DNA from: Candidatus Omnitrophota bacterium
Lineage (GTDB): Bacteria; Omnitrophota; Gorgyraeia; B26-G9
Reading direction: 5' to 3'
DNA: 64,000 bases
NCBI GenBank assembly: GCA_043805415.1
Contig: JAZDHZ010000007.1
Span: 93,786 to 157,785, forward strand
The position numbers and the translations under genes are program-made. This document shows positions 1,761 through 37,899 of the stretch, in pieces (position 1 is the stretch's first letter; each line of letters starts with the position of its first letter). The notes below the pieces were generated by a model. The model did no database searches. It had not been told where the DNA came from and was given only the letters and a program-made list of their open reading frames with translations.

Positions 1761-1780
1761 GGCCACGTCACGCCGTGGCC
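1761..1780. other. GC-rich hairpin ggccacg-tcacgc-cgtggcc, 24-43 nt downstream of the stop of the 1804..2838 gene
   Basis: Perfect 7-bp GC stem in an AT-rich spacer; related motif CACGTCAC..CGTGG at 13194..13211. No U-tract follows on the minus strand, so it is not a canonical terminator. Confidence 0.4.
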
Positions 1781-1803
1781 CTACTATTCGCTATACGCTG
1801 CTT

Positions 1804-3841: not shown

Positions 3842-4084
3842 GGAACTTTGTATCCTTGCAACTAGCTTATTCCTCGGTCTAGAATCAATTATTTCTGCTC
3901 ATTCTCGCCTTACATCCTGTAAGGCTCCGAGGATAAATCTCTGATTTTGCCAGTCCTAACAAAATCAGGCTTTAAACCCGCAAAATAATTATTCTAGCCC
4001 TTTTTACTTTATCCTTTTTACTTTTTACTTCCATCTGTGTTCATCGATATTTTTTATTAGTGTTTATCACAAAAGCTTCTGCTT
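3842..4084 (-). promoter_or_regulatory. 243-bp structured spacer between two radical-SAM genes inside the operon
   Basis: Nested inverted repeats: cctcgg...[gccttaca tcc tgtaaggc]...ccgagg at ~3871..3925, and tgattttg-N10-caaaatca at ~3944..3969; no ORF of 60 aa or more. Confidence 0.35.
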
Positions 4085-5125: not shown

Positions 5126-5128
5126 TAA

Positions 5129-9184: not shown

Positions 9185-9208
9185 TATTTTTTCCTTAACC
9201 TGCTCATT

Positions 9209-12625: not shown

Positions 12626-13009
12626 TTATGACGACAGCTCTAATCCTTCGAGAAAATCATCAACAATTTTTTTATTCTGGTCATTTTTCCACCAGGAAAA
12701 GCTTATCCCTGATCTATATTTATCAGCATCCTGGTAAGTCCATTCCACTTTGCCGAAAACTCTTATTGGGCTAATAGTTTCATTTAGTAAAATATCTATA
12801 CTTAGACGTGTGCCAACAGCCATTGTTTCTTTTGAATAAATTCCTGCGCCGAAAAGAGTAAAATCCCGCAAAAAGCATTCTGTTCCGTTCCAATAGCGAA
12901 ACCATGCCTGCGGATCTAAGGGCCTAACCTGTACAGCTGATTTATCAGCTAATTTTCTTATATTCGCTCTCTGTTCCTTTGCGATAATATCCATATTTTT
13001 TTGCTCCAA
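12626..13009 (-). CDS. Small stand-alone PilZ-domain protein (putative c-di-GMP receptor)
   Basis: RANIRK (RxxxR) and DFTLFG (DxSxxG-like) motifs; paralog of the 37540..37899 protein (RPLDPQ.WFR.WN...VFGKVEW...G.SFSWWK shared). Confidence 0.6.
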   Translation of the reverse strand: MEQKNMDIIAKEQRANIRKLADKSAVQVRPLDPQAWFRYWNGTECFLRDFTLFGAGIYSKETMAVGTRLSIDILLNETISPIRVFGKVEWTYQDADKYRSGISFSWWKNDQNKKIVDDFLEGLELSS

Positions 13010-13193
13010 TTCAGCTTATTTCAGATTAATAGTTTCTTTAATTTATTTGCTCTTATTTAATCTATTTTTCAAACCCGCAGAGAATAAATCAAAACTATTT
13101 CCCATAGTTTTATAAAGCCTTTTTAAATATTTCATAAGTTTACACTAATGTTTAATTTTTTGCAAATTATTTTTTAAAAATGACAACCATTTT

Positions 13194-13211
13194 CACGTCA
13201 CCGCGTCGTGG
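13194..13211. other. GC-rich hairpin-like motif cacgtcaccgcgtcgtgg, ~50-70 nt downstream of the pilin-like gene stop
   Basis: Shares CACGTCAC..CGTGG with the 1761..1780 hairpin; the stem is shorter here. Confidence 0.3.
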
Positions 13212-13262
13212 AACGGTTGCAGCCAAATGGATGAATTAAGTATTGTGTCCCTTTATTTACCT

Positions 13263-13937
13263 TTATTTAGGCAGGGAAATTGTAGCAGTATAGTCATTTT
13301 TGTAAAATTCAGGGTTTGTTGTTTGTGTGCCCATGCCCATTTCTATGGTAATCAATACTTCTATCTTGCTCGGCGCTCCGTCAGTTCGTGAATCCCAGTC
13401 AATGAATGGAGCTCCGGAGCTGTCAAAAAAAGTAAATTGTAAATCAGTGATATTTTCGGAAAATGGATCGCTTGATCCAGTATTAAAATTAAAATCAAAA
13501 CCAACCGGATCTAAGGTTTTTCTACCGTCAGTAACATAAAATCTTTCTAATACATCATCATTTAATTCCGCGGTTCCCTGCCCATCCAGCCAGAATCCAA
13601 CTTCACATAAATCGGATTTATCAGCTTCATTTGGATTTAAAGCAGCAATAAAATAAAGTTCATCGCCAATGCTATCTGTTCTCCATCCGCTGGGAGTGGT
13701 TTTATCAAATCCTAAACAATAAAAATTATTACCTTCTCTAATCACCGCGCTGGAAATCTCTCGAGTCATTCGATCTAAAACAACCCGCGCGATAGTCGTA
13801 GATTTTAAAATATTATCCGCCTTTTTCCAAGCACGCAAAGAAACATTAAAAACCGAATACAAAATCGCTATCAGTAAAGCAAGAATTCCGATAGAAACTA
13901 AAAGCTCAATCAGGGTAAATCCTTTTTTTAAAACCAT
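13263..13937 (-). CDS. Type IV pilin / pseudopilin-like protein (prepilin N-terminal cleavage/methylation domain)
   Basis: N-terminus KKGFTLIELLVSIGILALLIAILYSVF: class III signal with G-1, F+1, E+5 and a hydrophobic helix; start codon overlaps the stop of the upstream 767-aa gene. Confidence 0.7.
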   Translation of the reverse strand: MVLKKGFTLIELLVSIGILALLIAILYSVFNVSLRAWKKADNILKSTTIARVVLDRMTREISSAVIREGNNFYCLGFDKTTPSGWRTDSIGDELYFIAALNPNEADKSDLCEVGFWLDGQGTAELNDDVLERFYVTDGRKTLDPVGFDFNFNTGSSDPFSENITDLQFTFFDSSGAPFIDWDSRTDGAPSKIEVLITIEMGMGTQTTNPEFYKNDYTATISLPK

Positions 13938-16240
13938 TAAAATGTTCCCTCATAAACAACTCGAACAATATGCCGGGTATCTAAAACAGCGCTCTGCCAT
14001 CCCAGGCCTTTAATATAATCACCCAGATCGCTAAACTGCAAAGAAATTTTACTATTTTCATCACACTGATAAATACACTCAAAATAAAGATTATGGTGTC
14101 CAACAACATCCCCATCTCTTCCATAATCTGAGACACGGCTATAGCGGTAAACAAGGCGGGTGCTTACATCTTCATTCAGCCAGTAACGAATATCCGCTCC
14201 GGTATAATTCATAAAATCATCTAATGTCGCGGCATAATTAAATTCATTATAAGTATATTCCAAGCCTATCTCCGTCCATTTATCCGGAGTTATAACCAAG
14301 CGGGTTTTACTAATATAATAATACGGATAAGGCGCCTGCGGATTAATATCAAGCCAGGTATAAAGATAATCGGGAAATTCAGGATACTCATTAGTTTTTT
14401 CTAATATTTCCTCTAAACTCAGCCATTGATTAAAATCATATTTAAATCCCGCTGATACTGTGCTTATATCCGGGCTTTTACCTTCAGCCGTGTCCGGACG
14501 ATTGTGCGCGAGCATCAAAAACTTGTAAAGCATTTGTTCGCTTGCTTGATAAGCCACCTCGCCTCTTAAAACATTTTCCACAAATGAATCATCTGTGGCA
14601 TTGCTGACATTGCGGAAATTAAGATAAACATCAGTGCCTTCAAATTTACCAAAATGAACATCGGCTGCTGAGACTTTTCTGTCTTTATCAATACTATTGC
14701 CAATCCGATAGTTTTCTTCATCATCGCCGCGGCGAAAAAATGCTATATGTCTGCCCCATTGCTGATCGTTTTTAGTGTAGTTATACGCTGCCAAGGGAGC
14801 TTCAAATTCCCGGCCCATTTGAGAGTATGAAAAACTGGAATCAATCGGCATTTCAAAAGGATCGATTTTACTTTTAAGCGCGACCGTATACGCGTCATCG
14901 TCGCTCTTTACTTCATAAGCTTCATTATTAGTATTATGTTCGGTTTTCGAAATCGCGGCTTCGGCTTTTATGGCGTGATACTCATTAATTTGATAAGAAG
15001 AATCAATGGCCATGGCCTGATCAAACGCGTCCTGACTATCATTATTAAACCCTACTCTTGAACTATAAATTGATCCCAGCATGAATTGATCAGAAAATTC
15101 TTTTTTAAACCTAAAGGCTAAAGGAATATTATTTACTTCAGTATAATCATCCCAAAGATCTAAAGGCGCTGCCATCATAAAATCCGTATAAATGCTGGCA
15201 ATTTCCCCTTCAAACCGAAAAGCTCTGAGCAAAGTAAGCCAGTTGCCGGCGCTGTCTCTTAAAACTTCGTCAGCCTGCCAGGCTCCGCTTGTCCAGCCTT
15301 CGGCTGTATATAACCTGCCGGGTATCCATTTATACAGCCACGGACTTGCCTGCCAAAAAATATGATTATTGACTAATTTCAGCGGATCATCGGAATACAT
15401 TGATATATTTTCTTCGGCATATAAAAATAAAATCATCCGGTATTCATCTTCTTTATAATCAAACCATAAAGCTTTTATTGGTTTTAACTCCATATCAACT
15501 TTTAATTCCGGAATGTCTATTCTATGCGTATCTGATCCATATGATCCAAAAACAGTTGTGGGCGGGGCAAAGCCGTTGGAGACTTTTGCTTCCGGCAAAT
15601 TAAATGTATCTCCGGCCGCGGAACGCACTGTTTGCGGATATAGATTACCCGTATTAGACCAGTATTTTAACTGAAACTCTACTGGATCCGCGCCATCAAC
15701 CGCTCCATACCAGCTAGGCAAAGTGATTTTTTGTGACTTACCGACAAAAGCCCAGGGGTCGATGGATATTTTTGTATACAGGGAAAGCTTATCATTTATC
15801 GGAGCATCAATGCTTAACTGCAATTGATTGTAGATGGAAGGGTCATAAGTATTATAACGGTTCTCGCCATAAACCCAACGCCAGGAACGCTCCCGCTGAA
15901 GATAATTAGCGTCTTTCCAAATTAAGTCCGAAGTATCGGATCCTAAATTAAACCGGAAACTCCCTTTTACTACCGGCTCATAAAGCAGTTCATCTTTCGC
16001 GTAGTCTTCCTGAGCCAGCGCGTAAACATCAGGATCATATAGGTCGGAATACTCCTGATCAATAACTTCACTGCTTTGATCTTGAGCAAAAGTAAATGGG
16101 CAAAAAAAGATATAGTTTAATCCTAAAAATAAAATTATGAATTTAAACAGATAAGCTGATAAGCCGCTACCGCTAAAAAAAAATCTCTTTAGCTTCTTTA
16201 ACTTCTCAAGTAAAACATTTTGATTTCGCATATTTATCAA
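13937..16240 (-). CDS. Large secreted, aromatic-rich protein, possibly an outer-membrane beta-barrel (767 aa)
   Basis: N-terminal signal peptide ending ...PFTFAQ|DQ; Y/W/F-rich, alternating-polarity sequence; C-terminal ...VYEGTF ends with Phe as many OMPs do. Confidence 0.4.
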   Translation of the reverse strand: MINMRNQNVLLEKLKKLKRFFFSGSGLSAYLFKFIILFLGLNYIFFCPFTFAQDQSSEVIDQEYSDLYDPDVYALAQEDYAKDELLYEPVVKGSFRFNLGSDTSDLIWKDANYLQRERSWRWVYGENRYNTYDPSIYNQLQLSIDAPINDKLSLYTKISIDPWAFVGKSQKITLPSWYGAVDGADPVEFQLKYWSNTGNLYPQTVRSAAGDTFNLPEAKVSNGFAPPTTVFGSYGSDTHRIDIPELKVDMELKPIKALWFDYKEDEYRMILFLYAEENISMYSDDPLKLVNNHIFWQASPWLYKWIPGRLYTAEGWTSGAWQADEVLRDSAGNWLTLLRAFRFEGEIASIYTDFMMAAPLDLWDDYTEVNNIPLAFRFKKEFSDQFMLGSIYSSRVGFNNDSQDAFDQAMAIDSSYQINEYHAIKAEAAISKTEHNTNNEAYEVKSDDDAYTVALKSKIDPFEMPIDSSFSYSQMGREFEAPLAAYNYTKNDQQWGRHIAFFRRGDDEENYRIGNSIDKDRKVSAADVHFGKFEGTDVYLNFRNVSNATDDSFVENVLRGEVAYQASEQMLYKFLMLAHNRPDTAEGKSPDISTVSAGFKYDFNQWLSLEEILEKTNEYPEFPDYLYTWLDINPQAPYPYYYISKTRLVITPDKWTEIGLEYTYNEFNYAATLDDFMNYTGADIRYWLNEDVSTRLVYRYSRVSDYGRDGDVVGHHNLYFECIYQCDENSKISLQFSDLGDYIKGLGWQSAVLDTRHIVRVVYEGTF

Positions 16241-16278
16241 CCGTCCTTGGCTAAACTACACTATTCATAGTTAATTTC

Positions 16279-18231
16279 CTAAAATATATTATACTCCTCT
16301 TTGGCAAAAATTGCAAAATTAGTGCCCGCGGCTGAGATTGAGCCGCTATCCGGCGTATACCAGCCATGTCCGGTATCAACAGCGCTATTACTGGCATAAG
16401 GCAAGCCTCCGCTGCCTTTGCTTAAACCAAAGGCTGAACGCACAAGCATCAGTTTTTCCAGCTCGCCCAGATAATAATCCGCTCTGCGCTCATATTTATC
16501 CGCCTTAGCCGGATCTGATTGCTGTTTATAAAAACTGCTGATCTGGCGAAAAGCGACAACCATTTGCGCTGTCCATTCTACTGAAATTGTTCCGCTTCTG
16601 CTGATGCTTGAAGGCGCGCAAAAATCAAAACCGCTTATGTTTATTTTTTTGCCTGAAATATTTTTAACATTTATAGTGGTCTTGCAATTTTCCTCCGCGC
16701 AGTCGATCAGATCATCAATTGTAACTCCCATATCTTCCAGTCCTTCCGGGCCAAAAGCCATAATGCTCAGGGCAATCGTATCAGTCGCGATCATCCGATC
16801 ATCAGTACCGCGATTAAATCTTTTTAATGTTTTATTATAAGCGGTATCTTTAAGCCAGCCATGTATTTTCCGCGCGGCCAGAGCATAGCGCTGATCATGC
16901 TCGGTTTTAAATAGGGTTTTAAAAAATATATACGCGGCAATATTCTGCTCTGTACCGGCCCAACTAACCTGAGGCCCTCCCGGCAAAGATCCATCACTAT
17001 TTTTGTTTTGCAAATCAAGCAGCCAATCAGCTATTTCATAAACCAGTTTGCTATAGGTATTTTTACCAGTAGCTTGTTCATAACGCATAATTGCCAGGCC
17101 TAAATAGATAACTGGTCCGGTGTGCACAATATATTCTGAAACATTGCCGGTAATTACATCATAGGCATTAGCAAACCCGCCTTGAACTTTTTTAGCGCGG
17201 TTATTAAAAAAATCAAAAATAAGTTCCGCCTTTTCAAACTGTTTAAAATTAATAAAATTAAACGCGCTCAGAGCCTGGTCATAAGTAAATCCGACATCGA
17301 TTAAAGCATGATCATTATCATAACTTACAATAAGCCCGGTCTTACTGCTTTGCGAAGCAATAAGCCATTGCCGCATTAAATCCAGAGTCTTATCTTCTAA
17401 AACAACTCTTTTATCACTGATTTTCTCAAGCTTGGTCTCCAAAACAGCCTGGGTATCAGTGTATTTATTAAGCTTAGTCTGCATCTTTTGTTTTTCCGCG
17501 AATAAGTCAGCGAGCTGTTTTTTTAGCTTGCTTTGATCTACCAGCAATTTTTCAACTTCTTCAGTATTCTGCTCGCCGGCTTGCTGATTTTTAAGCGTCT
17601 CGATCTTTGCTAATTTTTCCTTCATCTGATTTTCCGCTTTTGAACTATTATTCAGCATATTGGCTAAAATAAACTTTTCCGCTTTAATTTTATCCAGTTC
17701 TTGGTTTACCATAAACTGTTCATCATTTAACTGTCCCAGATGCTGAACAAGTAAACTATTATCGCGGGTAAGCCGGATATTGTCATAAGCTAAAAACCCG
17801 CAAAATAAGACTAATAGCAAACCAGCCAAAGCAATCATCCGCGGAATAGCCAGCATAATCTTAGCAAAACGGATTATGCGTTTTTGTTCAACTTGATCAA
17901 TCGCTTCATACGCTAATCCGAGCATATAACTTTGGGGATAGGGAGCGGCGGTTTTTTTTGACCAGGCAACACGCGCGATGGCTTTAATTGGGTTTTGGGT
18001 TAAGGGAATATTTAAAAATACTTGAAGTTTGTTTTTGTTGTTTTTCAGTAATTCAGTATGCTCCTGGCTTAAACTGTTTATTTCCACGCATACACCTGAA
18101 AAACTTACGTCCCGGGTAAACCCCTGCATTAAATCGCTGATCGGCTTATTTTGAGCATCAACTATTTTTAATTCAACCGGAAATATCTTATTGAGCCGAA
18201 CGTATTTTCTTTGATCATTTATCATAGGCAA
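16279..18231 (-). CDS. PilZ-domain / transmembrane / coiled-coil / (alpha/alpha)-toroid-like fusion protein (650 aa)
   Basis: N-terminal RKYVRL...DVSFSG PilZ motifs; TM helix IMLAIPRMIALAGLLLVLFCGFLAY; long Q/K/E-rich coiled coil; C-terminal ~330 aa with repeated hydrophobic-helix/Gly-Trp blocks (GWLKDTAY, HGWYTPDSG). Confidence 0.5.
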   Translation of the reverse strand: MPMINDQRKYVRLNKIFPVELKIVDAQNKPISDLMQGFTRDVSFSGVCVEINSLSQEHTELLKNNKNKLQVFLNIPLTQNPIKAIARVAWSKKTAAPYPQSYMLGLAYEAIDQVEQKRIIRFAKIMLAIPRMIALAGLLLVLFCGFLAYDNIRLTRDNSLLVQHLGQLNDEQFMVNQELDKIKAEKFILANMLNNSSKAENQMKEKLAKIETLKNQQAGEQNTEEVEKLLVDQSKLKKQLADLFAEKQKMQTKLNKYTDTQAVLETKLEKISDKRVVLEDKTLDLMRQWLIASQSSKTGLIVSYDNDHALIDVGFTYDQALSAFNFINFKQFEKAELIFDFFNNRAKKVQGGFANAYDVITGNVSEYIVHTGPVIYLGLAIMRYEQATGKNTYSKLVYEIADWLLDLQNKNSDGSLPGGPQVSWAGTEQNIAAYIFFKTLFKTEHDQRYALAARKIHGWLKDTAYNKTLKRFNRGTDDRMIATDTIALSIMAFGPEGLEDMGVTIDDLIDCAEENCKTTINVKNISGKKINISGFDFCAPSSISRSGTISVEWTAQMVVAFRQISSFYKQQSDPAKADKYERRADYYLGELEKLMLVRSAFGLSKGSGGLPYASNSAVDTGHGWYTPDSGSISAAGTNFAIFAKEEYNIF

Positions 18232-18285
18232 ATAATATCGGGTATCAGTTGATTTAGGGTTTCAGGTTAAATGACTTAAGGTTTA

Positions 18286-20109
18286 TTATTCGATCGCGAA
18301 CGAAAACTTTTTGCTTATTTTTTTATCTTTAATCGTAATTAAAAGCTCCGCTTGATAATCGCCGGCCTGCTCAAATACATGGCTAAAACTTCTTTCCTGA
18401 GAAAGCACCAGCTCTTGGCCGTTGATATTCCAGCTCCACCGCATATCTTTTTCCTGAATGCTTGCTGGAAAAATATTAACGCTAAACTCAACTGGCTGAC
18501 CTAGTTTAGCTTTCTTGCCAGCAGGCATATTGATAACTATATCATGCATCCAAACACTTCGGCAAACAGCATTCTCACTGCCCTCTGTTTTAGCGCTAAG
18601 ACATAAAAGCTTCGGCAGCGCTGCAGCATATGTGGTGCTGAATTCAGTAACATTGCCCGGTAAATTATTTGAACCTTTATCCCAAAACCACTCAAAATTA
18701 AATGTTGGCTGAACTGTGCCCACGGAAAAATCCTGGGCCGTTGCCTGCCAATTTACAGTTTCTTCCAAAAACCCGTTCTGAGGTATGCTTTTTAAAGTCA
18801 TTACGATATTAGAACCTTGCGCGCTAAACATCATATCCAGCGGATAAGCCACTTCATTTTTTATCGGAATTTCATTATCAATCTCTTGTTTACGCTCAGC
18901 TGCCTGGAGGGAAAAAGCCTTGGCTTTATTAATCAGGCGCGTGAATAATTCACCTGCCTTTTGCTTATCACCCTTCCATTGCGTAACTAAACCAGCCTGA
19001 TAAGCGCAGAAATCAGCATAGTCAGAATCAGCAAATTCATTATTTACTTTTTCCAGATAATCTAATCCTTGGTCTATCTGTCCAAGATAAAAAAGATTCA
19101 AAATCCCCAAACGGGTATAGACTTCAGCTAAAAACTGACTTTGCGCGGAACTTTTAATAAACTGCTTATATTCTTCTTGGGCGCGTTTATAATCGCTGAG
19201 TGTTTCCAGATTAAGCCCTCTATCAAAAATTTCCGCTTCCGTAAAAACTTCTTGGCCAAAACTTTTTTCGGCTTTAGCGTATATTTGCTCAGCAAAGTCG
19301 GCGTCTAAGGCCGGGCAAAATCCATAATCGCGAAATTTATCACAGATATTCATCAAAACGATCTTGGCATCAAGTTTAGAATATCTTAGCAAAACAAAAT
19401 CAATATAATGACCATAAACAACAATTGCCATATCAATTTGCCCGGCACTTAGATATCCATCCGCGATTTCCTGTAAACGCCGCGCGGAAGAAGCATCAGC
19501 ATTATTGGCGATTAAATAATCTTTATACGCAACAAATAATTGATTAAGCTGGTGCTTTCTTCCTTCGGAAGCAATAATTTTAGCAACTTCCTGGAATTTT
19601 TTAATATCCCCGGTTTTTTCGGTATACGCGATAACATTATTGACAAAATTATCAAATACTTCCTGCGATGCTTGCTCATTCTCATCACGCAAGTATGCTT
19701 TTTGCGCCAAATACTGCAAATCAATCAACTCTCCAGTTATTGCCGCGCTGGCATATTTAGCTGCTGTCTGAATTATTTGTTCATCCAACTCATCCATATT
19801 GTCATAATAATCCTGCCAAAGCTCTTTTTTTTCCAGGTTATCAAGATACAAGGAATCAGCCAAAGCTAAATAGTATTCAATTAAAAAAATATCATCTGAT
19901 TCTATGGCTTGGGTTTCAAGCTGATTAAAATATTCCCTCAGCCCGCTAAAATCTTCTTTGGAAACAAAATCAACAAAACGAGCTTTTATTTGATCAGCAG
20001 AAAAACCATCTTCGGCTAAACCCAGAGTTCCGCTTAGCATAAAACTTATTAGCATAAACATTACCCACACTAAATCCAATTTTTTGCGATTAAAAACGAA
20101 ACTATTCAT
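18286..20109 (-). CDS. Secreted TPR-like helical-repeat protein with a C-terminal PKD/Ig-like domain
   Basis: Signal peptide; helical repeats rich in Y/A/L; C-terminal SFSHVFEQAGDYQAELLITIKDK resembles the PKD consensus. Confidence 0.45.
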   Translation of the reverse strand: MNSFVFNRKKLDLVWVMFMLISFMLSGTLGLAEDGFSADQIKARFVDFVSKEDFSGLREYFNQLETQAIESDDIFLIEYYLALADSLYLDNLEKKELWQDYYDNMDELDEQIIQTAAKYASAAITGELIDLQYLAQKAYLRDENEQASQEVFDNFVNNVIAYTEKTGDIKKFQEVAKIIASEGRKHQLNQLFVAYKDYLIANNADASSARRLQEIADGYLSAGQIDMAIVVYGHYIDFVLLRYSKLDAKIVLMNICDKFRDYGFCPALDADFAEQIYAKAEKSFGQEVFTEAEIFDRGLNLETLSDYKRAQEEYKQFIKSSAQSQFLAEVYTRLGILNLFYLGQIDQGLDYLEKVNNEFADSDYADFCAYQAGLVTQWKGDKQKAGELFTRLINKAKAFSLQAAERKQEIDNEIPIKNEVAYPLDMMFSAQGSNIVMTLKSIPQNGFLEETVNWQATAQDFSVGTVQPTFNFEWFWDKGSNNLPGNVTEFSTTYAAALPKLLCLSAKTEGSENAVCRSVWMHDIVINMPAGKKAKLGQPVEFSVNIFPASIQEKDMRWSWNINGQELVLSQERSFSHVFEQAGDYQAELLITIKDKKISKKFSFAIE

Positions 20110-20149
20110 GCGCGATCACTTCCTTTGGTTTTGTCTGATTATTTTTACT

Positions 20150-21439
20150 TTATTTTTTGCCTGTTTCTTTGTCCTGTTCAGGTTCTTTATCCTGATATTC
20201 TTTATTCCAAAGCTTACGCAAAACATAATAAGCTTTCCTTGGGTTTCTTTTATTTAAACCATTGGCATCAAGCTCAGGATCTAAGCCCACAATCCCGAAC
20301 CATTCTTCATTCATATTCTTGTCCGCTTTAGCGTCAAAATCATATGAACCCATGCCCCAAGCAGCGACATTATCATGAACCCACCAGCTGTTTCGATCGC
20401 TTTCCGAGCTTTTCCACCATTCATCATTCCATTCAAATACAACTCCGCCCAGACAATTACCCACTCCCTCGCCGCCATCCATGTTGTTTTGAATGTCAAG
20501 CCATTGACTTTTCAAAAATTTTGCCTGGTTTTTCTGATCTTCTTGTTTTTTCACCATATTATAGGCGTCACAGCCAAACTCGGTTAAAATAACCGGCCGG
20601 TCAAACTTACGTTTTACTTCTTTAAAAAAGTTGCCAAATACCTTACCGCGATAGACAATACATCCAAGCAAATCAATATCCGGACAATTTTCCGCTGCTA
20701 TTTTCAGACCAACAGTCTCACCATTGCCTAAAGAGACCAGATGGATAGGATCAATTTCCTTTATTTTTTTAGCCAGTTCATTAACAAAGGAATAATATAT
20801 TTTAGCCCGCGCGTCTCTTTTTTTGCCAAAACTATCCATTGCGTCGATTTCATCGCTTGACCAGGGATTTATTCTGCCGTCAAAACTATAATTATTTTCA
20901 TTGCCTAAATTCCAGATTAGTATTCCAGGGGTATCTTTAAAATATTCTACTGTATTTAAGACTTTCTCCGTGATTTCTTTTCTAAACTCCGGATCAGCAT
21001 AATTAGCAGGAGGATAATCCCAAAAACCAAGCGTATAGCCTAAAATAGTCCGAATCCCGTATATCTTATATAAGTCCTCAATCATTGTCCGACAAAATTC
21101 CAGCTCATCTCCGCTATGATAGAGTCTGATCGTATTCACACCCATTTCTTTCATTAATTTTCCATCAACTAACCAGGGTCGCTTCGGGTCGCAGACAAAA
21201 TTATATAAAATTCCCTGCTGACCTATGGGCACTGGGGAATAACAAACCCCTTTTACAATAAACGGTTTTTTATCAACAATCAGCTGATAGTTATATTTTT
21301 GTTCATCTTCTCTGCTTTGTTTTTTAATTTTTATTTTCTTAATATAAACCTTACCCTTAGGCTCTTGTTTTAACAGACTGCATCCTGTGATTAATAAAAA
21401 AATTAATAATAACGTAATTTTACGAATTTCCATATTCAT
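20150..21439 (-). CDS. Lipoprotein glycoside hydrolase, clan GH-A TIM-barrel (GH5/GH72-like catalytic motifs)
   Basis: Lipobox LLITGC; WNLGNENNY (acid/base NE motif) and ILTEFGCDAYN (nucleophile TE/SE-x-GC motif as in GH72); paralog of the 23063..24955 C-terminal domain. Confidence 0.55.
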   Translation of the reverse strand: MNMEIRKITLLLIFLLITGCSLLKQEPKGKVYIKKIKIKKQSREDEQKYNYQLIVDKKPFIVKGVCYSPVPIGQQGILYNFVCDPKRPWLVDGKLMKEMGVNTIRLYHSGDELEFCRTMIEDLYKIYGIRTILGYTLGFWDYPPANYADPEFRKEITEKVLNTVEYFKDTPGILIWNLGNENNYSFDGRINPWSSDEIDAMDSFGKKRDARAKIYYSFVNELAKKIKEIDPIHLVSLGNGETVGLKIAAENCPDIDLLGCIVYRGKVFGNFFKEVKRKFDRPVILTEFGCDAYNMVKKQEDQKNQAKFLKSQWLDIQNNMDGGEGVGNCLGGVVFEWNDEWWKSSESDRNSWWVHDNVAAWGMGSYDFDAKADKNMNEEWFGIVGLDPELDANGLNKRNPRKAYYVLRKLWNKEYQDKEPEQDKETGKK

Positions 21440-21550
21440 ATTAAAAAAACCTTTCCCCTGATTTTAAAATTATTACCCAATACATCTCTTCACTCTTGCT
21501 TTGAAAAATCACCCATCTAAGCTAAATTACAATCTCATATAGCAAATAAG

Positions 21551-21585
21551 GGTAGGAACTAGAATCAGGCCCCTACCCTTACTTG
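21551..21585 (-). terminator. Candidate stem-loop (taagggtagg-N15-cctaccctta) just downstream of the 21608 stop
   Basis: 10-bp perfect stem; the minus-strand downstream sequence is only moderately U-rich. Confidence 0.3.
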
Positions 21586-21607
21586 TTGATATTTATCAAT
21601 CTAATAA

Positions 21608-22297
21608 TTATTTTTCGTAGCGGATATCATCCAGGTAGAAAACAGCTCCATCTGGATTAGAATCAGCATTAGATGCCCAGCAGAAACCGCCATTTATATA
21701 GGACAAATCAACATCTGTCAAATCAATAGTATATTGCAGCCAGTCAGCAGTAAGGTCAATCGGCCCAATTCCTACAGAATCAGAATCGCCATAAGTTCCT
21801 CCGATACCGCCCATTTTAAATTCCATGATGCGTTCATTACCAACTTTACCTTTTGCCCAGAATGTAATTTTTTTTGCTCCGCGCAGATCAAATCCGCCTT
21901 TTTTCTCACCCCAGTTGTTTGCCGGGTTCTGCCAAAATACTCCGGCCCAATTTGCCCCTTGTTTGCCTTTCGCGGTATAAATAAACTCTATACAGGTCTT
22001 TCCCTCATGAGGAGCTACAGCACAATTAAGATCCATTTTTACATCCCCGGAATCTCCCATCCAACCCGAAGGTATATAATGATTTACTCTATCGCCTCTA
22101 TCTTTATATACATAGAAATTTCCGTCCTGAAAATCCCCGGCTTTACCCAACAGTACTTCATCCGCTGCTTCATCTTCCAAATCCTGCGCGGCAACTATCG
22201 GAGCACAAAGCATCAAGCTCACACATAAAATTGCCATAAACCAAACTAACTTTTTCATCCCTTCCTCCTTTAAATGAGCGCTTGACTTACGGAGCAT
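21608..22297 (-). CDS. Secreted carbohydrate-binding-module-like beta-sandwich protein
   Basis: Signal peptide; GANWAGVFWQNPANNWGEKKGGFDLRGAKKITFWAKG...FYLDDIRYE; paralog of 22396..23022. Confidence 0.45.
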   Translation of the reverse strand: MLRKSSAHLKEEGMKKLVWFMAILCVSLMLCAPIVAAQDLEDEAADEVLLGKAGDFQDGNFYVYKDRGDRVNHYIPSGWMGDSGDVKMDLNCAVAPHEGKTCIEFIYTAKGKQGANWAGVFWQNPANNWGEKKGGFDLRGAKKITFWAKGKVGNERIMEFKMGGIGGTYGDSDSVGIGPIDLTADWLQYTIDLTDVDLSYINGGFCWASNADSNPDGAVFYLDDIRYEK

Positions 22298-22395
22298 TTT
22301 TGCGGCGTCAAGTCAACCAGCTCGAATTTAGTCCGAAATGTCTGCGGCCTAGCAGGCACTTTCGGAATCATTATTAATTCTAAGCCATTAAACTA

Positions 22396-23022
22396 TTATT
22401 CATATTTTATATTATCCAGGTAAAAAACACAACCTTTTCGATTATGCGCCTTAGTCAGAGCAAAACTAAACCCAGCAAAAATATACTTCATATTTCTTTG
22501 CGAAACATCCACGGAATACTGTTTCCAATCGGGAGTTAATACCACTGGCCCAATCCCATGATTATCAGAGTCAGGATAATTCCCTTTTAAACCGCCTAAT
22601 CTAAAAACAGCTATATGTTCACCTCCTTTTTCTCCTCTGGCCCAAAAAGTAAGCTTTTTTGCAAAGCGCAGGTCATAGCCACCCTTTTTCTGCCCCCAGT
22701 TACCCGGAGGATTAACCCAGTAAAGGCCAGCCCATCCAAAGTCTCCGGTTGCGTCATATTTTATCTTAACACAGGTATTGCCGGATTGAGGATTTTCCTT
22801 ACACCCCTCATCAACCACAATCGCCTGTCCATCACCAATAGTCTGGGAAGGGAAAAAACTGTTTTCCTTTGCCTCTTTATCTGAATAAACTATTTGCTCA
22901 GTAATCGCCGATACTTGCGCTTCTGGGGCTGGTTCTTTGTCTAAGTCTTGCTGCGCAACGGCATAACTATTTATAGCAGCTATCAAACTGACCAATAATA
23001 TCAGCAAGAAAATCTTTTTCAT
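22396..23022 (-). CDS. Secreted carbohydrate-binding-module-like beta-sandwich protein (paralog)
   Basis: DFGWAGLYWVNPPGNWGQKKGGYDLRFAKKLTFWARG...FYLDNIKYE; collinear with the 21608..22297 protein. Confidence 0.45.
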   Translation of the reverse strand: MKKIFLLILLVSLIAAINSYAVAQQDLDKEPAPEAQVSAITEQIVYSDKEAKENSFFPSQTIGDGQAIVVDEGCKENPQSGNTCVKIKYDATGDFGWAGLYWVNPPGNWGQKKGGYDLRFAKKLTFWARGEKGGEHIAVFRLGGLKGNYPDSDNHGIGPVVLTPDWKQYSVDVSQRNMKYIFAGFSFALTKAHNRKGCVFYLDNIKYE

Positions 23023-23062
23023 TTTTATCTTTTTCCTTAATTTGCCTGATTGCTAAACAATC

Positions 23063-24955
23063 TTATCCCTCAACCCAAATCTTTTGCAATTCAAAGTAAG
23101 CTTTTTTAAGCTGCCGCATAAACGGAGAATCTGTTCCATCGCCTTGGCTGGTAATCCCAAACCATTCTTCATAATACCATCCGTCGACAAACGGTCCGCC
23201 GCAATTAGGGGTAACATCCTGAATTATATCCGGAAATCCCGGAGGAGCTCCGGTCTTCCACCACTCATCAATAAATTCAAACACAACCCCTCCCAAAGCA
23301 TTGCCAGCACCAAAACCCGCGCTGTTTTGCGCAATATCCTGCCAATTGTTAACCAGATAATCAGCCTGAAAGTTTTCAGCATATTCCCGGCTGTATCTAT
23401 GCCCATAAGATGGACATCCATATTCTGTGACCATTGCCGGTTTATCAGCAACTTCCTTAATTGGCAGCCATAAATTAAAATAGCCAAAACCATGCTTGCC
23501 TCTATAGGCATTTACTCCTAGAATATCAATGTCCGGACAATTTCCCGCGAAAATATCGAGAAAATGGATATCGCCATTGCATAAAGCTACCGGATGATAG
23601 GGATCAACTTCTTTAATCTTTTTTGCTACTTCATTTACAAAATGATAATAAGCTTCTGGGTTTTTAGGTGAATTATTGGCTATCCCATAATTATTTTCAT
23701 TGCCCAAAACCCACATCAGCACACACGGTTCATCCTTATAGTTATTAACCATCTTCATTACTGAATCAAGCATATTACTCTGATGTTCTGGATTAGAATA
23801 GTCAGTTCCCGGAACCCAAGAAGCCTTTGAACCAACCGCGTACATGCCCAGGAAATCACCAATAATAATCCGAATACCATAGTCCTTATATAAATCTACA
23901 AACAGCTGCTTGTTTTTTACAAAATCATGGTGGTAAACTCTTAACACATTTACTCCCATATCTTTCATAATCTGAAAATCACCAATAGCCGGCTCATCAC
24001 CTTCCTGGATATTGTTCCTGTTCTTATCAATCCAAGCGTCATAAGGACCATCAATCTTATTATTTTGGTTCTCATCAGATAAAGACCAATCTTTTAATGT
24101 GCCGATATCCGGACTCTGTCCGATCTTAGTTGGCTGATAAGCCATGGCTTTGATTATAAACGGCTGACCGTCTACTTTCATCTGCCAATGACCATTTTCA
24201 TATTTTGTCAAAGTAACATGCCCATAGACTTTTTGTTGTTTGACTTTCAGGCTGGACATATTTATTTTTTTATCCACTACCTGATTGGGCTCAACCTTAA
24301 TTAATTTTCCAGGATTAATACTAAACACATCGTTTCTTAGATCTTCATCGTATCTATTTTCAATCGCGATCCTGGCATCAACCAGCTTAATTCCCAGTTC
24401 AGGATATTTTTTAGTTAAATACATGATTCGATCTAAAGCTGCCGGTCCGACATACCAGGGAGTTCCCCAGTAAGTAACACCCATGCTCTTGGGAAAATGT
24501 ACTGCCGCGGCATAATAAGCTTTTATTGCCTGGCTAATATGCCCGGCATTTTCCAATATTTCCGCGGTATAAAACAGTTTTATTCCCTGATCCTCAGCAG
24601 CGGTTGCCCATTTATAAAATGCCGCCTGATAATCAAAAATATTTACAAATGACCAGTGGCTGCCCAGGAGTTTTTTCGCTTTATTAAACTCCTTGTATTG
24701 AGGATCCTTGGTTACATTGGTATTTGGGAATATGCCTTCGCCAACCGCGGCAGATAATCCTTTGGGATCTTTTAATTGGTATTTATATTTGGCTGTATTT
24801 AGATTCTTAAACTCTCCGTACTTTTCATAATCGATAATAATTTCCGGACCCTGATTCTCCAATTTAAAAGTCGGCTCAGGCAGCGCGAAAACATCGCTCA
24901 AATTATAAATAAAACTAAGAATTAAAAATGTAAAAACCAGTTTTTTAAACCGCAA
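23063..24955 (-). CDS. Secreted glycoside hydrolase, clan GH-A TIM-barrel with an N-terminal accessory domain (630 aa)
   Basis: Signal peptide; WVLGNENNYG, MVTEYGCPSYG and GVVFEFIDEWWKT blocks parallel the 20150..21439 protein. Confidence 0.55.
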   Translation of the reverse strand: MRFKKLVFTFLILSFIYNLSDVFALPEPTFKLENQGPEIIIDYEKYGEFKNLNTAKYKYQLKDPKGLSAAVGEGIFPNTNVTKDPQYKEFNKAKKLLGSHWSFVNIFDYQAAFYKWATAAEDQGIKLFYTAEILENAGHISQAIKAYYAAAVHFPKSMGVTYWGTPWYVGPAALDRIMYLTKKYPELGIKLVDARIAIENRYDEDLRNDVFSINPGKLIKVEPNQVVDKKINMSSLKVKQQKVYGHVTLTKYENGHWQMKVDGQPFIIKAMAYQPTKIGQSPDIGTLKDWSLSDENQNNKIDGPYDAWIDKNRNNIQEGDEPAIGDFQIMKDMGVNVLRVYHHDFVKNKQLFVDLYKDYGIRIIIGDFLGMYAVGSKASWVPGTDYSNPEHQSNMLDSVMKMVNNYKDEPCVLMWVLGNENNYGIANNSPKNPEAYYHFVNEVAKKIKEVDPYHPVALCNGDIHFLDIFAGNCPDIDILGVNAYRGKHGFGYFNLWLPIKEVADKPAMVTEYGCPSYGHRYSREYAENFQADYLVNNWQDIAQNSAGFGAGNALGGVVFEFIDEWWKTGAPPGFPDIIQDVTPNCGGPFVDGWYYEEWFGITSQGDGTDSPFMRQLKKAYFELQKIWVEG

Positions 24956-25007
24956 TTAAATCATCCCTTTCATATATCCGCCAAAATACTCAAAAAATCT
25001 TATCCGC

Positions 25008-26447: not shown

Positions 26448-26552
26448 TTGAGCTCCTTCCCTATTTTTGTAATTAGCGGCGATCTTCGTCCTTGCTTTAA
26501 TAAACTTTACGAATATTTTCAGCAATTTTTTTGGATCAAGCCCTGCTTAAGT

Positions 26553-26584
26553 AAATAAAAAAGCCCATATAAGTTTATATGGGC
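26553..26584 (-). terminator. Rho-independent terminator (minus strand)
   Basis: Perfect 9-bp stem gcccatata/tatatgggc with a 4-nt loop; on the minus strand it is followed by TTTTTTATTT. Confidence 0.5.
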
Positions 26585-26829
26585 GTGACAATTTTATGAT
26601 TAATTGACAAACTATTGAATATAAATTGTTTTTGCAAGTAACAATTAGACATATTTTTCCTTTGAAAACTTAATTTCGGGGAATTTCCTTCCTTATATAA
26701 ATAGGTATTAATTGAACCCTTTTTATAACATAAATCAACTTTCATGTCAAGCTGAATAAACCTTGCGTATTTTTGTACTGATATTAAACCGTAAACAGTA
26801 TGTTTTTTATTATCCTGCCCTAAACATTA

Positions 26830-31098: not shown

Positions 31099-31139
31099 TA
31101 AGCTCTTCTTTGATTAAATATTTATCATTAACTAAAATA

Positions 31140-34715: not shown

Positions 34716-34840
34716 AACTTTTCTCCTCGTTAAGAATTAAAGCTCTTTATAAAGATTACAGAAAATGCGATAAAGTATACCATGAGTTTTGGGATAATGC
34801 AAATGTGTAACGATTTGATAATAAACGGTTTAAGGAGTTA

Positions 34841-34945
34841 TGAATTATAAGTTATGGGTTGGCGAGTTTGCCAGTTAGGAAAGCAGCGAGTAGTGTTTAG
34901 GACTTAGCGTAAAGTGATCCATAGTCAATAGCTAATAGAAAAATG
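34841..34945. repeat. Intergenic repeat element, copy 2 (TGAATTATAAGTTATG ... ATAGTCAATAGCTAATAG)
   Basis: Exact 18-mer ATAGTCAATAGCTAATAG at 34921..34938; 5' sub-motif matches 641..656. Confidence 0.55.
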
Positions 34946-35037
34946 GAAGATGGGAAAAACTAAAAAAGTTTATAAATAAAACCAGAACTCGTGAACGCGC
35001 TAACGCGCAAACTGGTTAACACTATTGGTTAACACTA

Positions 35038-35151
35038 CTAATTTACATTTACCAATTTACCCAGATACTCTCCCACTAATTGATTATCTTTTACTTCTTC
35101 ATACCCTTTGATTATTAATATTAAATCCCGAACAATCTGCCCATTAGCCAT
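35038..35151 (-). pseudogene. Remnant of a PilZ-paralog 3' end (37 codons), immediately downstream of AbiEii
   Basis: Minus-strand translation MANGQIVRDLILIIKGYEEVKDNQLVGEYLGKLVNVN*; the last 17 aa match the C-terminus of the 37540..37899 PilZ protein (KDDQDKQLVNEYLGKLLNIN); shares the 14-mer aatttacccagata with 37567..37580. Confidence 0.5.
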
Positions 35152-35159
35152 AATGTAAA

Positions 35160-36059
35160 TTATTCTGTTACCAGTTCAAACCTAGTCCCACTTTCCATAG
35201 CGTTATTAATTCTGGTAAGAGCCTTATCTAGACTGAAATTATCCCGCTCATTGAGCGACAAAACATCAAATAGCTCTGCTTCAATGCGTGAATTCATATC
35301 TTTTATTTCTTCATCTGATCTGCCAAGATTTTTTCTGTATTTAACTAAATCTGTATCGGCATCATCCTCCTGAAGTTTCTTTTTAAACAGCGTCATTACT
35401 TCTTTATCTGCTAAATCAAACTTATTGCGAAGAATAAAGTCAATATCGTAGAAATCGCGCGGAGCTATAATTTGACGTGTCGCGCCTGCGCGTAACTTTT
35501 CTGAAACAATCTCTTTTAGTGACATACACTGAATCTCGCCACTAGCAAACAATGGCTCATCAGTAAAAGAGTGTTTGAATTTATGCTGTACCGCTCTTTT
35601 TTCAGTGTCTAAAATAGGGTTAAATTTCAAACCTACTTCAAATTTAATTGTCTGCTCAGAAAGTGTTGTAACAGAATCATATACGATATGGTACACATAC
35701 TGCTTTGATTCATTTCTCCCGGGATTACCGGCATCATCAATCCTCATGCTAAATTGCTTCACAAACCTCTCAATACCATTCTTAACCGGCTGGATGCATT
35801 TACGCCTCTCACCTCGTGTAGCTTGATACCGCGGAAGCATCATACTAAAATCAAGATCTTCACTCAAACGATAATATGAATAATATATCTTATTGAGACA
35901 GGTTCCTCCTTTAAAAATAAGATTACCTGACAATTCATGTATACGAGAAAGCAGTAATGTTAAATAATAATCTTTTTCTATCAGCGGCGCATAAAATCCC
36001 GTTAATGACGCGATACGATCAATAAGAATAAAAAATTGTTCTTTATCTTCGTGTATCAT
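35160..36059 (-). CDS. abiEii: AbiEii-family nucleotidyltransferase toxin (type IV TA / abortive-infection AbiE system)
   Basis: N-terminal hallmark IEKDYYLTLLL...LIFKGGTCLNKIYY...RLSEDLDF (KDYxL...FKGGTxL...R.SEDxDF); ~300 aa; overlaps the upstream AbiEi gene by 17 nt. Confidence 0.75.
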   Translation of the reverse strand: MIHEDKEQFFILIDRIASLTGFYAPLIEKDYYLTLLLSRIHELSGNLIFKGGTCLNKIYYSYYRLSEDLDFSMMLPRYQATRGERRKCIQPVKNGIERFVKQFSMRIDDAGNPGRNESKQYVYHIVYDSVTTLSEQTIKFEVGLKFNPILDTEKRAVQHKFKHSFTDEPLFASGEIQCMSLKEIVSEKLRAGATRQIIAPRDFYDIDFILRNKFDLADKEVMTLFKKKLQEDDADTDLVKYRKNLGRSDEEIKDMNSRIEAELFDVLSLNERDNFSLDKALTRINNAMESGTRFELVTE

Positions 36060-36856
36060 TAATAATAATTCTCCATTTTTTATTTAACGTACCTTTTCTT
36101 GATTCTGACAATGAGGCAATCGACGTTTCTTTGACACTTTTTACAAGTGATCTCAATAATAGATCACTAATTCCACATTTTTCCAATATGTACCCCATAT
36201 ACTTACGAGTCTTTATATTGGGAAACCGAGTCGCATAGTCAATAAGCGTTTTTATGTCACATTTTTTTTCTGTTACAAACCTCTCTACTATCTGGCCTGC
36301 GGCAAAAAAACCGCCTACCGGCTTATTAAAATAAATAAGATCAACCAATGTTTTTTCTTTTGAACTAATGCAAACATTAACGCCTCTTATAATTTTTTTT
36401 TTCAATCCCATACATTTGAGCCCGAGACACATTTATAAACTTAAACAGAATTCCCGCAATCTTTTTTTCCTTGCTCAAGCTCGTATTAAGAACATACACT
36501 TTCTGGAATTGCTGATCTGTAAAGCTGTAATAGTTAAACATTGTAGAATATCCAATATAGTAATCCCCCTTAGGAAAATAAATTGATGGTATTATAAACT
36601 CACTAATACGGCGTCCTGTAGGAACTGATTCAAGAGGAACAAATATATATATGCCGCTTTTAATAGGAATTAAAATATTTTTTGTTTTTAACCTGAATAC
36701 AAGTTGTCTTCTATAAGAAAAATCAGCAGGCAAAAAAGCATCCAACTCTTTTGCTGTTACGATCTCTTTTTTTTCATAGACAAGCCGCGCGATAAGTTCT
36801 GTCTCTGTTTGACTAAGCGAACTAAATGTTTTTTTATTTGGCATATGTACCCCCAC
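36043..36856 (-). pseudogene. abiEi: AbiEi-family antitoxin/transcriptional regulator, interrupted by a -1/+1 frameshift in an A10 homopolymer (T-run 36393..36402 on the plus strand)
   Basis: Two overlapping ORFs: 36377..36856 (N-terminal wHTH-like LVFRLKTKNILIPIKSGIYIFV) and 36043..36432 (C-terminal ...CISSKEKTLVDLIYF...). Removing one A from GAAAAAAAAAAT fuses them into one ~270-aa AbiEi (GIEKK|IIRGVNVCISS). Confidence 0.65.
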
Positions 36857-37330
36857 AGTTACATTGAACTAACGATAATACATTAATATAGTAACATATA
36901 AGACTTATAAGTCAATGGAAAACTGTATTACATGGAAAACTGTATTATTAAAGCCGCAAAAAAATGCTCATACTATAATTCTTTATATTAATTACCTCTA
37001 CTACATTATTAATATTCAATCCTAAACAATCTGCTCAAAATAAAAAGCACACAAGAGCAGCGTATAGCGAAAAGGAATGTTCATTAGTTAAAAGTTTATA
37101 AAGTGAAAGGCGGAAAGCGTAAACTACTTAGCTGATGGCTCTTGGGAAAAACAGGAAAAACAGATAGAGTAAAAGTTTGTAAAGTTCTCGAGTTTAGCGA
37201 TTGGCGGGTCACAAGAAAAGTCACCAGGACACAAAAAAAATAGTATTGAGCATTGCGTAAAACCGAAGGATGAGAGACGATCGCTGCGCTAGGACGACGG
37301 ACGGAAAAGCAGGAAGCATAAAAAACATGC

Positions 37331-37368
37331 TGGCTCATGGCTAATAGCTGATAGCTAATGGTCAATGG
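37331..37368. repeat. Intergenic repeat element, degenerate copy (tggctcatggctaatagctgatagctaatggtcaatgg)
   Basis: Same GCTAATAG / TCAATGG building blocks as the copies at 601, 34921 and 37971. Confidence 0.4.
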
Positions 37369-37476
37369 TAAAAAAATAAAGAAAATAGTATTGCGTATCG
37401 CGTATTGAGTATAGCGTAAAGCAAAAAGAGCTTAGCGGATATCCCTTCGACTTCGCTCAGTGTAAAGATTACAAGC

Positions 37477-37511
37477 AAAAAAAGCATGAAGCTTATTGCT
37501 AGCTTCATGCT
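37477..37511 (-). terminator. Rho-independent terminator downstream of the PilZ gene (also a weaker plus-strand terminator)
   Basis: Perfect 11-bp stem agcatgaagct/agcttcatgct with a 7-nt loop; preceded on the plus strand by AAAAAAA, i.e. a U7 tract after the hairpin on the minus strand; lies 30-60 nt past the 37540 stop. Confidence 0.65.
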
Positions 37512-37539
37512 TTAAAGTATTTTATACTAAATATTATAA

Positions 37540-37899
37540 CTAATTTATATTTAATAATTTACCCAGATATTCATTAACCAACTGTTTATCCTGGTCGTCT
37601 TTCCACCAGGAAAAACTAACTCCGGTTCGATACATTCCAGCATCTTCGGTTATCCACTCCACCTTACCGAAAACCCGGATTGTACTAATATCCTTGCTCA
37701 GGCGCAAGTCAATGCTTAACGGCGTGCCAATCGGTATTCTTTCATTGGAAACCACTCCCGCGCCAACCATGCTGATATCGCGCATGGAATATTCTGCGCT
37801 GTTCCAAAACCTGAACCATACCTGAGGGTCAAGCGGGCGAAGACTTATTGAACTGTTCTTAGCTTCCTTGCGTGCGCTATTGCGTCTATCCTTATCCAT
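37540..37899 (-). CDS. Small stand-alone PilZ-domain protein (paralog of 12626..13009)
   Basis: RRNSAR (RxxxR-like) and DISMVG (DxSxxG) motifs; collinear with the 12626..13009 protein. Confidence 0.6.
   Translation of the reverse strand: MDKDRRNSARKEAKNSSISLRPLDPQVWFRFWNSAEYSMRDISMVGAGVVSNERIPIGTPLSIDLRLSKDISTIRVFGKVEWITEDAGMYRTGVSFSWWKDDQDKQLVNEYLGKLLNIN

Follow-up and report, generated by a model that had tools for sequence, protein, structure and literature searches.

PilZ-domain genes at a conserved Omnitrophota locus 3' of a giant gene: three predicted c-di-GMP receptors and their gene neighbourhoods

Small genes for PilZ-domain proteins have been described downstream of the giant 'Archaeovorin' genes of Omnitrophota (West-Roberts et al. 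2023, bioRxiv 10.1101/2023.11.21.568195, section 11 and Fig. 7C). Here we analyse a locus of this kind in a 64,000-nucleotide stretch of DNA from a Candidatus Omnitrophota bacterium (GenBank assembly GCA_043805415.1, contig JAZDHZ010000007.1, positions 93,786 to 157,785), referred to below as the window. All of its genes lie on the minus strand, and they include a giant Archaeovorin-like open reading frame (ORF), two small stand-alone PilZ proteins (PilZ-A and PilZ-B) and a longer protein headed by a PilZ domain (the PilZ fusion). As in the cited passages of the preprint, a small stand-alone pilZ gene sits immediately 3' of the giant ORF, and genes for carbohydrate transport and glycosyl hydrolases, represented here by an MFS_2 transporter and two hydrolases of clan GH-A, follow further downstream. 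The importer is an MFS_2 symporter in the window, as against a binding-protein-dependent ABC system in those passages, and no GGDEF domain of the kind that they place in the giant protein as the proposed partner of PilZ turns up in the 8657 in-window residues of the giant ORF. The same passages make no mention of a fusion of PilZ to an (alpha/alpha)6 barrel, of PilZ-B or of the insertion remnant described below.

The PilZ fusion can be set beside Alg44 of the Pseudomonas alginate system, with which it shares an N-terminal cytoplasmic PilZ domain carrying RxxxR and DxSxxG motifs, a single membrane-spanning helix and, on the periplasmic side, a helical region, as well as a place in a glycan-handling cluster with tetratricopeptide repeat (TPR) and probable outer-membrane proteins. 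Unlike Alg44, it continues into a helical hairpin and a six-hairpin glycosidase-like barrel instead of a membrane-fusion-protein domain, with no HlyD-type Pfam match, and its neighbours are hydrolases and an importer, with no adjacent gene for a family 2 glycosyltransferase (GT2) synthase; the sole GT2-like signal is a weak match inside the giant ORF. An Alg44-like assignment was rejected on account of these differences in periplasmic domain and gene partners. PilZ-A has the fold and both motifs of the small PilZ adaptors (MotI/DgrA/YpfA, MapZ/PA4608, VCA0042 and YcgR), and its best structural match is MotI (5vx6, TM score 0.68), but its subfamily has conserved Trp-rich segments of its own and its gene context is non-flagellar. 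A further gene pair in the window, next to PilZ-A, resembles the AbiE type IV toxin-antitoxin/abortive infection systems in having AbiEi and AbiEii in the usual order with overlapping ends, and differs from them in that AbiEi is frameshifted and the pair lies in a repeat-flanked insertion inside a pilZ 3' end.

On balance, we think it probable that the window represents a conserved locus 3' of a giant gene, in which three intact predicted receptors of cyclic diguanosine monophosphate (c-di-GMP) each stand in a functional neighbourhood of their own; within the mechanism set out below, the binding of c-di-GMP, the partners of the proteins and the sense in which regulation runs are predictions. 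Few known genes are longer than the giant genes of Omnitrophota, and PilZ-A would be the most tangible lead yet to how these are regulated. The Omnitrophota-wide fusion of PilZ to a glycosidase-like domain suggests that glycan processing in the periplasm is under the control of this messenger as well. Recombinant proteins would give access to both ideas even in bacteria that have not been cultured. As the preprint already contains the core linkage and existing annotation already calls the genes PilZ, the value added here is one of refinement: verification of motifs and fold, a count of the adjacency to giant ORFs, the architecture of the fusion and of its module, a recent origin for PilZ-B, and an explanation for a pilZ remnant.

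All three genes score above the Pfam gathering score for PilZ (PF07238, 22.5 bits): PilZ-A (37540..37899, minus strand, 119 aa) with 39.3 bits, the fusion (16279..18231, minus strand, 650 aa) with 32.4 bits over residues 6-122, and PilZ-B (12626..13009, minus strand) with 23.7 bits. An earlier note on this DNA, made from the letters and a list of ORFs, had called two stand-alone PilZ proteins and a PilZ domain at the head of 16279..18231, and the profile search bears these calls out, with the fold in agreement. The RxxxR motif is present in each protein, as R6-N-S-A-R10 in PilZ-A, R9-A-N-I-R13 in PilZ-B (numbered for the 122-aa protein that starts at the ATG at 12994) and R6-K-Y-V-R10 in the fusion. 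The DxSxxG motif is present in PilZ-A (D41-I-S-M-V-G46) and the fusion (D39-V-S-F-S-G44); PilZ-B (D44-F-T-L-F-G49) and its orthologues have DFT(L/I)(F/L)G at the [D/N]xSxxG position.

These residues are strongly conserved. Across an alignment of 29 small PilZ proteins, R6, R10, D41 and G46 are invariant, and S43 gives way to T solely in the PilZ-B clade and to N in one outlier. Among 56 homologues of the fusion (33-85% identity), R6 and R10 are kept in 53 of 53 ungapped rows and G44 in all 56, position 39 is occupied by D (29 sequences) or N (27), and position 41 by S in 42 sequences and by G in 13. Profile-profile comparison of the small family with the fusion family aligns both motifs. The AlphaFold2 model of PilZ-A (pLDDT 78) finds almost only solved PilZ domains as structural matches (TM 0.55-0.69), including MotI/DgrA (5vx6), XCC6012, BcsA (4p00), VCA0042, YcgR, MrkH and Alg44, with a weak match to XC1028 (3dsg). 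Searches of PDB sequences returned no match to the small-PilZ profile at E<=1, and YpfA as the sole PilZ match to the fusion family.

The small PilZ proteins form a narrow subfamily. When 1.84 billion representative proteins were searched with its profile, the number of clusters was 3 at E<=1e-30, rising to 25 at E<=1e-10 and to 564 at E<=1e-3. A pattern for it, scanned against 185,579 species genomes, gave 10 loci in 8 metagenome-assembled genomes (MAGs), of which six carry the label Omnitrophota and one each 'PVC group bacterium' and 'uncultured Planctomycetia bacterium'. No further small-PilZ copies were found by the family hidden Markov model (HMM) in a six-frame translation of the window. 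The domain assignments themselves are not new, since NCBI already names all three genes PilZ; the record 100% identical to PilZ-A is a 'PilZ domain-containing protein' of a Candidatus Omnitrophota MAG. We regard the three proteins as canonical PilZ proteins, for which c-di-GMP binding is predicted from sequence and modelled fold and a reading as c-di-GMP receptors is reasonable. That reading, also made in the earlier note, has the family-wide conservation of RxxxR and D/NxSxxG behind it, and is less certain for PilZ-B with its DxTxxG.

PilZ-A is encoded immediately 3' of the giant ORF (38025..63998, minus strand, at least 8657 codons within the window), as had been noted earlier, and starts 125 nt past its stop codon. 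No terminator-like site was detected between the two, and an intrinsic-terminator-like hairpin with a 13-bp stem and a T run (37481..37513, minus strand) directly follows PilZ-A, which makes co-transcription of PilZ-A with the giant gene probable. The adjacency recurs in relatives: across 13 distinct related loci (L numbers below denote individual loci), a PilZ-A orthologue lies directly 3' of a very long ORF in 11, with gaps of 14-326 nt. The upstream ORFs in these 11 loci have 6563-13301 called residues, or are open through the full 10-kb flank, or are cut by the end of the contig (as in L002, where 2574 residues remain), and the arrangement is kept in L003, L005 and L028 despite differing downstream genes. 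Conserved adjacency strongly supports a link between PilZ-A and the giant gene, a link already proposed in the preprint (bioRxiv 10.1101/2023.11.21.568195).

In the proposed mechanism, PilZ-A is a single-domain adaptor, probably co-transcribed with the giant gene, that most likely binds c-di-GMP via R6xxxR10 and D41xSxxG46. It would dock through highly conserved Trp-rich surfaces (SLRPLDPxVWFRFW and FSWWKDDQDK) onto the cytoplasmic part of the giant protein or onto its secretion machinery, and docking would tie the giant protein's deployment to c-di-GMP.

The PilZ fusion consists of the PilZ domain (aa 6-122), a membrane helix (∼127-147), a helical hairpin or coiled coil reaching to ∼290, and an (alpha/alpha)6 barrel (∼300-648). 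Its AlphaFold2 model (pLDDT 91.3) has a beta-barrel at 9-109 and long helices at 111-217 and 221-290, and the hydrophobic segment at ∼127-147 falls within the continuous predicted helix 111-217; we infer a topology of an N-terminal cytoplasmic PilZ domain followed by one membrane helix. Foldseek matches the barrel to six-hairpin glycosidases and epimerases (E∼1e-8, 10-15% identity), among them cellobiose 2-epimerases, MmpH and GH76 mannanases, and several homologues of the fusion carry a precomputed Pfam GH76 match. Four acidic residues of the barrel region, D316, E364, E426 and D482, are invariant. More than 230 full-length homologues were found, and those with a named source are nearly all from Omnitrophota.

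The genes around the fusion form a conserved cluster. Its first gene encodes an MFS_2 sugar:cation symporter-type transporter (25008..26525, minus strand, Pfam MFS_2 3e-61), syntenic in L009, L010, L015, L017, L023 and L026. It is followed by two TIM-barrel glycoside hydrolases (GHs) of clan GH-A (23063-24955, 630 aa, and 20150-21439, 429 aa, minus strand, Pfam Glyco_hydro_2_C / GH72), with two secreted ∼210-aa proteins between them (22396-23022 and 21608-22297, minus strand), whose signal peptides are read from sequence and which may be labelled carbohydrate-binding module (CBM)-like. Next come a 607-aa TPR and PKD protein (18286..20109, minus strand), assigned by Pfam and syntenic, then the fusion, and then a 767-aa protein (13937..16240, minus strand). 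The latter has no match in Pfam; its N-terminal signal-like segment and a C-terminal ...YEGTF or ...LTGDF ending are conserved in four homologues, and it is probably an outer-membrane beta-barrel.

The hydrolase/CBM-like block (20150..24955) has equal gene order in L009, L010, L012, L025 and L026, and the longer order of GH, two or three CBM-like proteins, GH, TPR protein and fusion, together with the MFS_2 importer, is found in the window, L009, L010 and L026. In L025, where the fusion is 35% identical, the hydrolase/CBM-like/fusion order occurs without the TPR gene and beside a binding-protein-dependent ABC importer. Because its neighbours are glycoside hydrolases and a sugar importer, the context of the fusion points to glycan degradation and uptake, not export.

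The fusion would be an inner-membrane protein in which the cytoplasmic PilZ domain is wired, via the membrane helix and the long helical hairpin, to a periplasmic (alpha/alpha)6 domain. Together with the two GH-A hydrolases, the CBM-like proteins and the sugar importer it would make up one module, in which it most likely renders periplasmic glycan processing responsive to c-di-GMP. The literature searched held nothing specific on a PilZ-glycosidase fusion. More tentatively, and with the balance of our judgement on the doubtful side, such fusions might constitute an undescribed class of c-di-GMP effectors that signal across the inner membrane to a periplasmic glycan enzyme and that, with PilZ-A, gate a programme of glycan attack. 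If true, the programme would serve to attack and consume the cell-wall glycans of prey or host in ultra-small, possibly predatory bacteria.

PilZ-B (NCBI start 12994, 122 aa) belongs to the same subfamily as PilZ-A, with 53% identity. On a neighbour-joining tree it forms a long branch nested within the PilZ-A family, which makes it a lineage-specific duplicate of PilZ-A; its clade is narrow, comprising the window and two or three close MAGs. PilZ-B lies 268 nt after a gene for a pseudopilin-like protein with an N-terminal methylation motif (13263..13937, minus strand, Pfam N_methyl 3.3e-7) and, upstream of the export operon as the earlier note placed it, 335 nt before a family 4 glycosyltransferase (GT4) gene. 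The operon (722..12290, minus strand), assigned by Pfam and syntenic in L012 and L026, is putatively one for ABC-transporter-dependent glycan export, and that label is a fair one for its GT4/ABC-2 genes; it contains the GT4 gene (11274-12290), an amine-oxidase-like flavoprotein, an ABC-2 permease, a 1351-aa ABC ATPase and four radical S-adenosylmethionine (SAM) genes. The arrangement of PilZ-B with the export operon also occurs in L012/L013/L020 and in L021. L026 retains the rest of the cluster and lacks both PilZ-B and the gene for the 767-aa protein. PilZ-B would thus be a fast-evolving, clade-restricted duplicate of PilZ-A, placed between the pair of pseudopilin and outer-membrane-protein genes and the GT4/ABC-2 operon, and its tie to that operon is positional only.

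From these positions the earlier note had drawn c-di-GMP control of both envelope glycan export and the giant surface protein. The adjacency in relatives upholds the link to the giant gene. Control of glycan export is weak, because PilZ-B is found in a narrow clade only and is absent from the otherwise syntenic L026, because the 335-nt gap between PilZ-B and GT4 holds a promoter-like site (12507-12479) with 11 of 12 consensus positions, and because the fusion belongs to the degradative-looking module of GHs, CBM-like proteins and importer and not to the export operon.

Several observations weigh against the reading of the window as a locus of three c-di-GMP receptors with their own functional neighbourhoods. 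The supply of the messenger is one: no GGDEF, EAL or HD-GYP domain was found in the large ORFs of the window, nor in the last ∼3300 residues of the giant ORFs of three relatives, and a search of the 8657 in-window residues of the giant ORF gave no GGDEF match at E<=1e-3. PilZ-B exceeds the gathering score by only 1.2 bits, with Thr where the motif calls for Ser, and the periplasmic domain of the fusion is only 10-15% identical to any solved enzyme. The link of PilZ-A to giant ORFs has its exceptions in L010/L022 and L018, where an ORF of 540-580 aa takes the upstream place; PilZ-A in L010 directly precedes the MFS-GH module, which suggests that its partner could be downstream.

The first of these points is what a c-di-GMP-independent account would build on, in which the PilZ domains are structural adaptors in a reduced genome without a working c-di-GMP network: neither the 64-kb window nor the giant-ORF C-termini of the relatives hold a cyclase or phosphodiesterase domain, Omnitrophota have small genomes and host-dependent traits (PMC10066038), and non-binding PilZ proteins exist, for example XC1028 (3dsg). 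We consider this very unlikely. RxxxR and D/NxSxxG are invariant or nearly so over the 29 small homologues and the 56 homologues of the fusion, in spite of divergence to 35-50% identity, which would be unexpected without selection for ligand binding, and GGDEF domains are reported in many Omnitrophota giant proteins in the cited passages of the preprint (bioRxiv 10.1101/2023.11.21.568195).

The small PilZ proteins could instead regulate type II secretion or type IV pilus-like machinery, and not the giant protein or glycan export, their adjacency reflecting a shared secretion locus. Stand-alone PilZ adaptors on pilus ATPases are an established paradigm, the PilZ proteins of P. aeruginosa and Xanthomonas acting on the PilB ATPase. 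An N_methyl pseudopilin gene that is conserved in L012, L021 and L026 does lie one gene before PilZ-B, and a type II secretion/type IV pilus-like locus upstream of giant genes is described in passages of the same preprint (bioRxiv 10.1101/2023.11.21.568195). However, Pfam finds no secretion ATPase gene among the ORFs of the window, PilZ-A keeps its place at the 3' end of the giant ORF and not beside pilin genes, and the founding pilus PilZ proteins are without the c-di-GMP motifs that are invariant here; we judge such a role improbable. Somewhat less improbable, yet still to be doubted, is a clustering of the three PilZ genes without joint function, the fusion being an old part of the hydrolase module, PilZ-A belonging to the giant gene and PilZ-B a local duplicate placed by chance. 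The absence of PilZ-B from the syntenic L026 and its restriction to the window and two or three close MAGs fit this, as do the promoter-like site between PilZ-B and GT4 and the occurrence of the fusion without a nearby small PilZ in L024 and L025. Set against it, the order of giant ORF, PilZ-A, importer, GHs, fusion and GT4/ABC-2 genes persists in several genomes across tens of kb. The long-range order includes both PilZ-A and PilZ-B in JAHITE010000094, where the two are 22 kb apart. This order suggests a supra-operonic functional unit.

The earlier note also listed a PilZ 3' remnant at 35038..35151. It is real and pilZ-derived, though shorter than had been thought, at only ∼35037-35099: the first ∼20 codons of ORF 35038-35151 are unrelated sequence. 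The remnant proper (35037..35099, minus strand) is 63 nt long, has 75% identity to 37539-37601 and encodes ...NQLVGEYLGKLVNVN followed by a stop codon, corresponding to the displaced ancestral last ∼17-20 codons and stop of PilZ-A. In related genomes, the pilZ 3' end continues into sequence that matches the window around the remnant. The pilZ 3' end with its flank is 82.7% identical over 133 nt to the remnant with its flank in L001 and 75% identical over 152 nt in L014, and the flank after pilZ in L005 aligns with window 34848-34737; together the pilZ 3' ends and flanks of L001, L014 and L005 match window 35088-34737, not the DNA after 37540. The DNA that follows the intact PilZ-A of the window has no counterpart in the pilZ flanks of these three loci.

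Relative to the related genomes, the window has an insertion of ∼2.5 kb with approximate boundaries at 35100..37596 (minus strand), which contains a substitute for the last ∼17 pilZ codons, the terminator, repeat-rich spacer DNA and the AbiEi/AbiEii pair. The AbiEi antitoxin gene (36043..36856, minus strand, PADLOC) is split by a frameshift into 36377-36856 and 36043-36432, whose products cover profile positions 2-135 and 125-242 of 252, while the gene for the AbiEii nucleotidyltransferase toxin (35160..36059, minus strand) is intact (Pfam AbiEii 3.3e-28, PADLOC 3.6e-38). Since the pilZ 3' ends and flanks of relatives are collinear with the remnant, we conclude that a block with the AbiE toxin-antitoxin genes and a substitute 3' end for pilZ inserted into the 3' end of PilZ-A, displacing the original 3' end ∼2.5 kb downstream. 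Y1 transposase genes occupy the same position in other genomes, which makes it an insertion hot spot.

A remnant left over from a second tandem pilZ copy that was destroyed by the AbiE cassette would also account for a stray 3' end, and an extra internal pilZ fragment beside a Y1 transposase gene in L005 offers a parallel. This origin is less parsimonious and in our view unlikely: L001, L014 and L005 each have one pilZ gene, collinear at its 3' end and flank with the remnant and the DNA beside it, and the stretch from 37540 to 35100 contains no 5' fragment of pilZ. No second pilZ 3' copies were found in the 13 related loci, and the remnant is specific to the lineage of the window. By the insertion account, the remnant is debris of mobile DNA and not extra PilZ dosage. 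A pilZ 5' fragment in the 89-aa ORF at 37096-37365 or elsewhere in the DNA between PilZ-A and AbiE was considered and rejected, as the small-PilZ HMM finds none.

Further observations concern the same region. The pilZ fragment in L005 (13795-13896) is nearer to PilZ-A of the window (78.6%) than to the gene of L005 itself. The Y1 (IS200/RAYT-like) transposase genes that recur just downstream of PilZ-A lie at 10551-11189 in L003, 10481-11119 in L017, 14077-14745 in L005 and 12848-13534 in L023. The frameshift in AbiEi is near an A-run (36400-36412) and could reflect a real pseudogene, a homopolymer assembly error or programmed frameshifting. Imperfect direct repeats of 33 nt, 88% identical, flank AbiEi/AbiEii at 37005-37037 and 35111-35143, suggesting a small mobile cassette nested within the larger 2.5-kb insertion.

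The giant ORF has Pfam matches to Helicase_C (aa 176-234, a SecA-like helicase region), Peptidase_M23 (1227-1340) and LysM, with weak matches to GH76 and GT2_3, and so pairs cell-wall-lytic Peptidase_M23 and LysM with weak GH76 and GT2 signals. It probably extends upstream past the edge of the window, as Helicase_C lies only 176 residues from that edge. The last 1000 residues, used as a homologue query aimed at the full-length protein and its domains, returned no matches. Between PilZ-A and the MFS gene lies a variable stretch (26830-34715) of large proteins of 650-2500 aa with hardly any Pfam matches. Comparable large proteins occupy this interval in L005, L015, L017 and L023, and many of them, as in the window, have a common N-terminal signal-anchor of the type 'MNNLLSKSWFRFISLVLIQAFL...'.

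An Rfam scan of the entire window gave no match to c-di-GMP riboswitches or other RNAs. Tandem heptamer arrays (TNAGCYA-like, with UAG/GAG every 7 nt) are found in intergenic DNA at 601-640, 34918-34938, 37328-37418 and 37913-37997. They also occur just 5' of pilZ in L003, L005, L006, L014 and L017, and are kept just upstream of the ribosome-binding site of PilZ-A in several species, again with no match in Rfam. The element GTCCTAGCGCAGCGATCGTCT is present in a single copy in the window (37275-37295, minus strand), and copies 80-92% identical are found in L014 (10516-10564), L012 (10529-10567), L020 (10469-10507) and L021 (10459-10512). The copies elsewhere sit ∼100-200 nt 3' of PilZ-A or PilZ-B genes, and the element may be a conserved 3' untranslated region or repeat tied to small pilZ genes. 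At the far end of the window, the four radical-SAM genes of the export operon (722-5125), two of which have SPASM domains, are paralogous, follow the ABC exporter genes and are conserved in L012 and L026; such a set is an unusual companion of a Wzm/Wzt-type operon.

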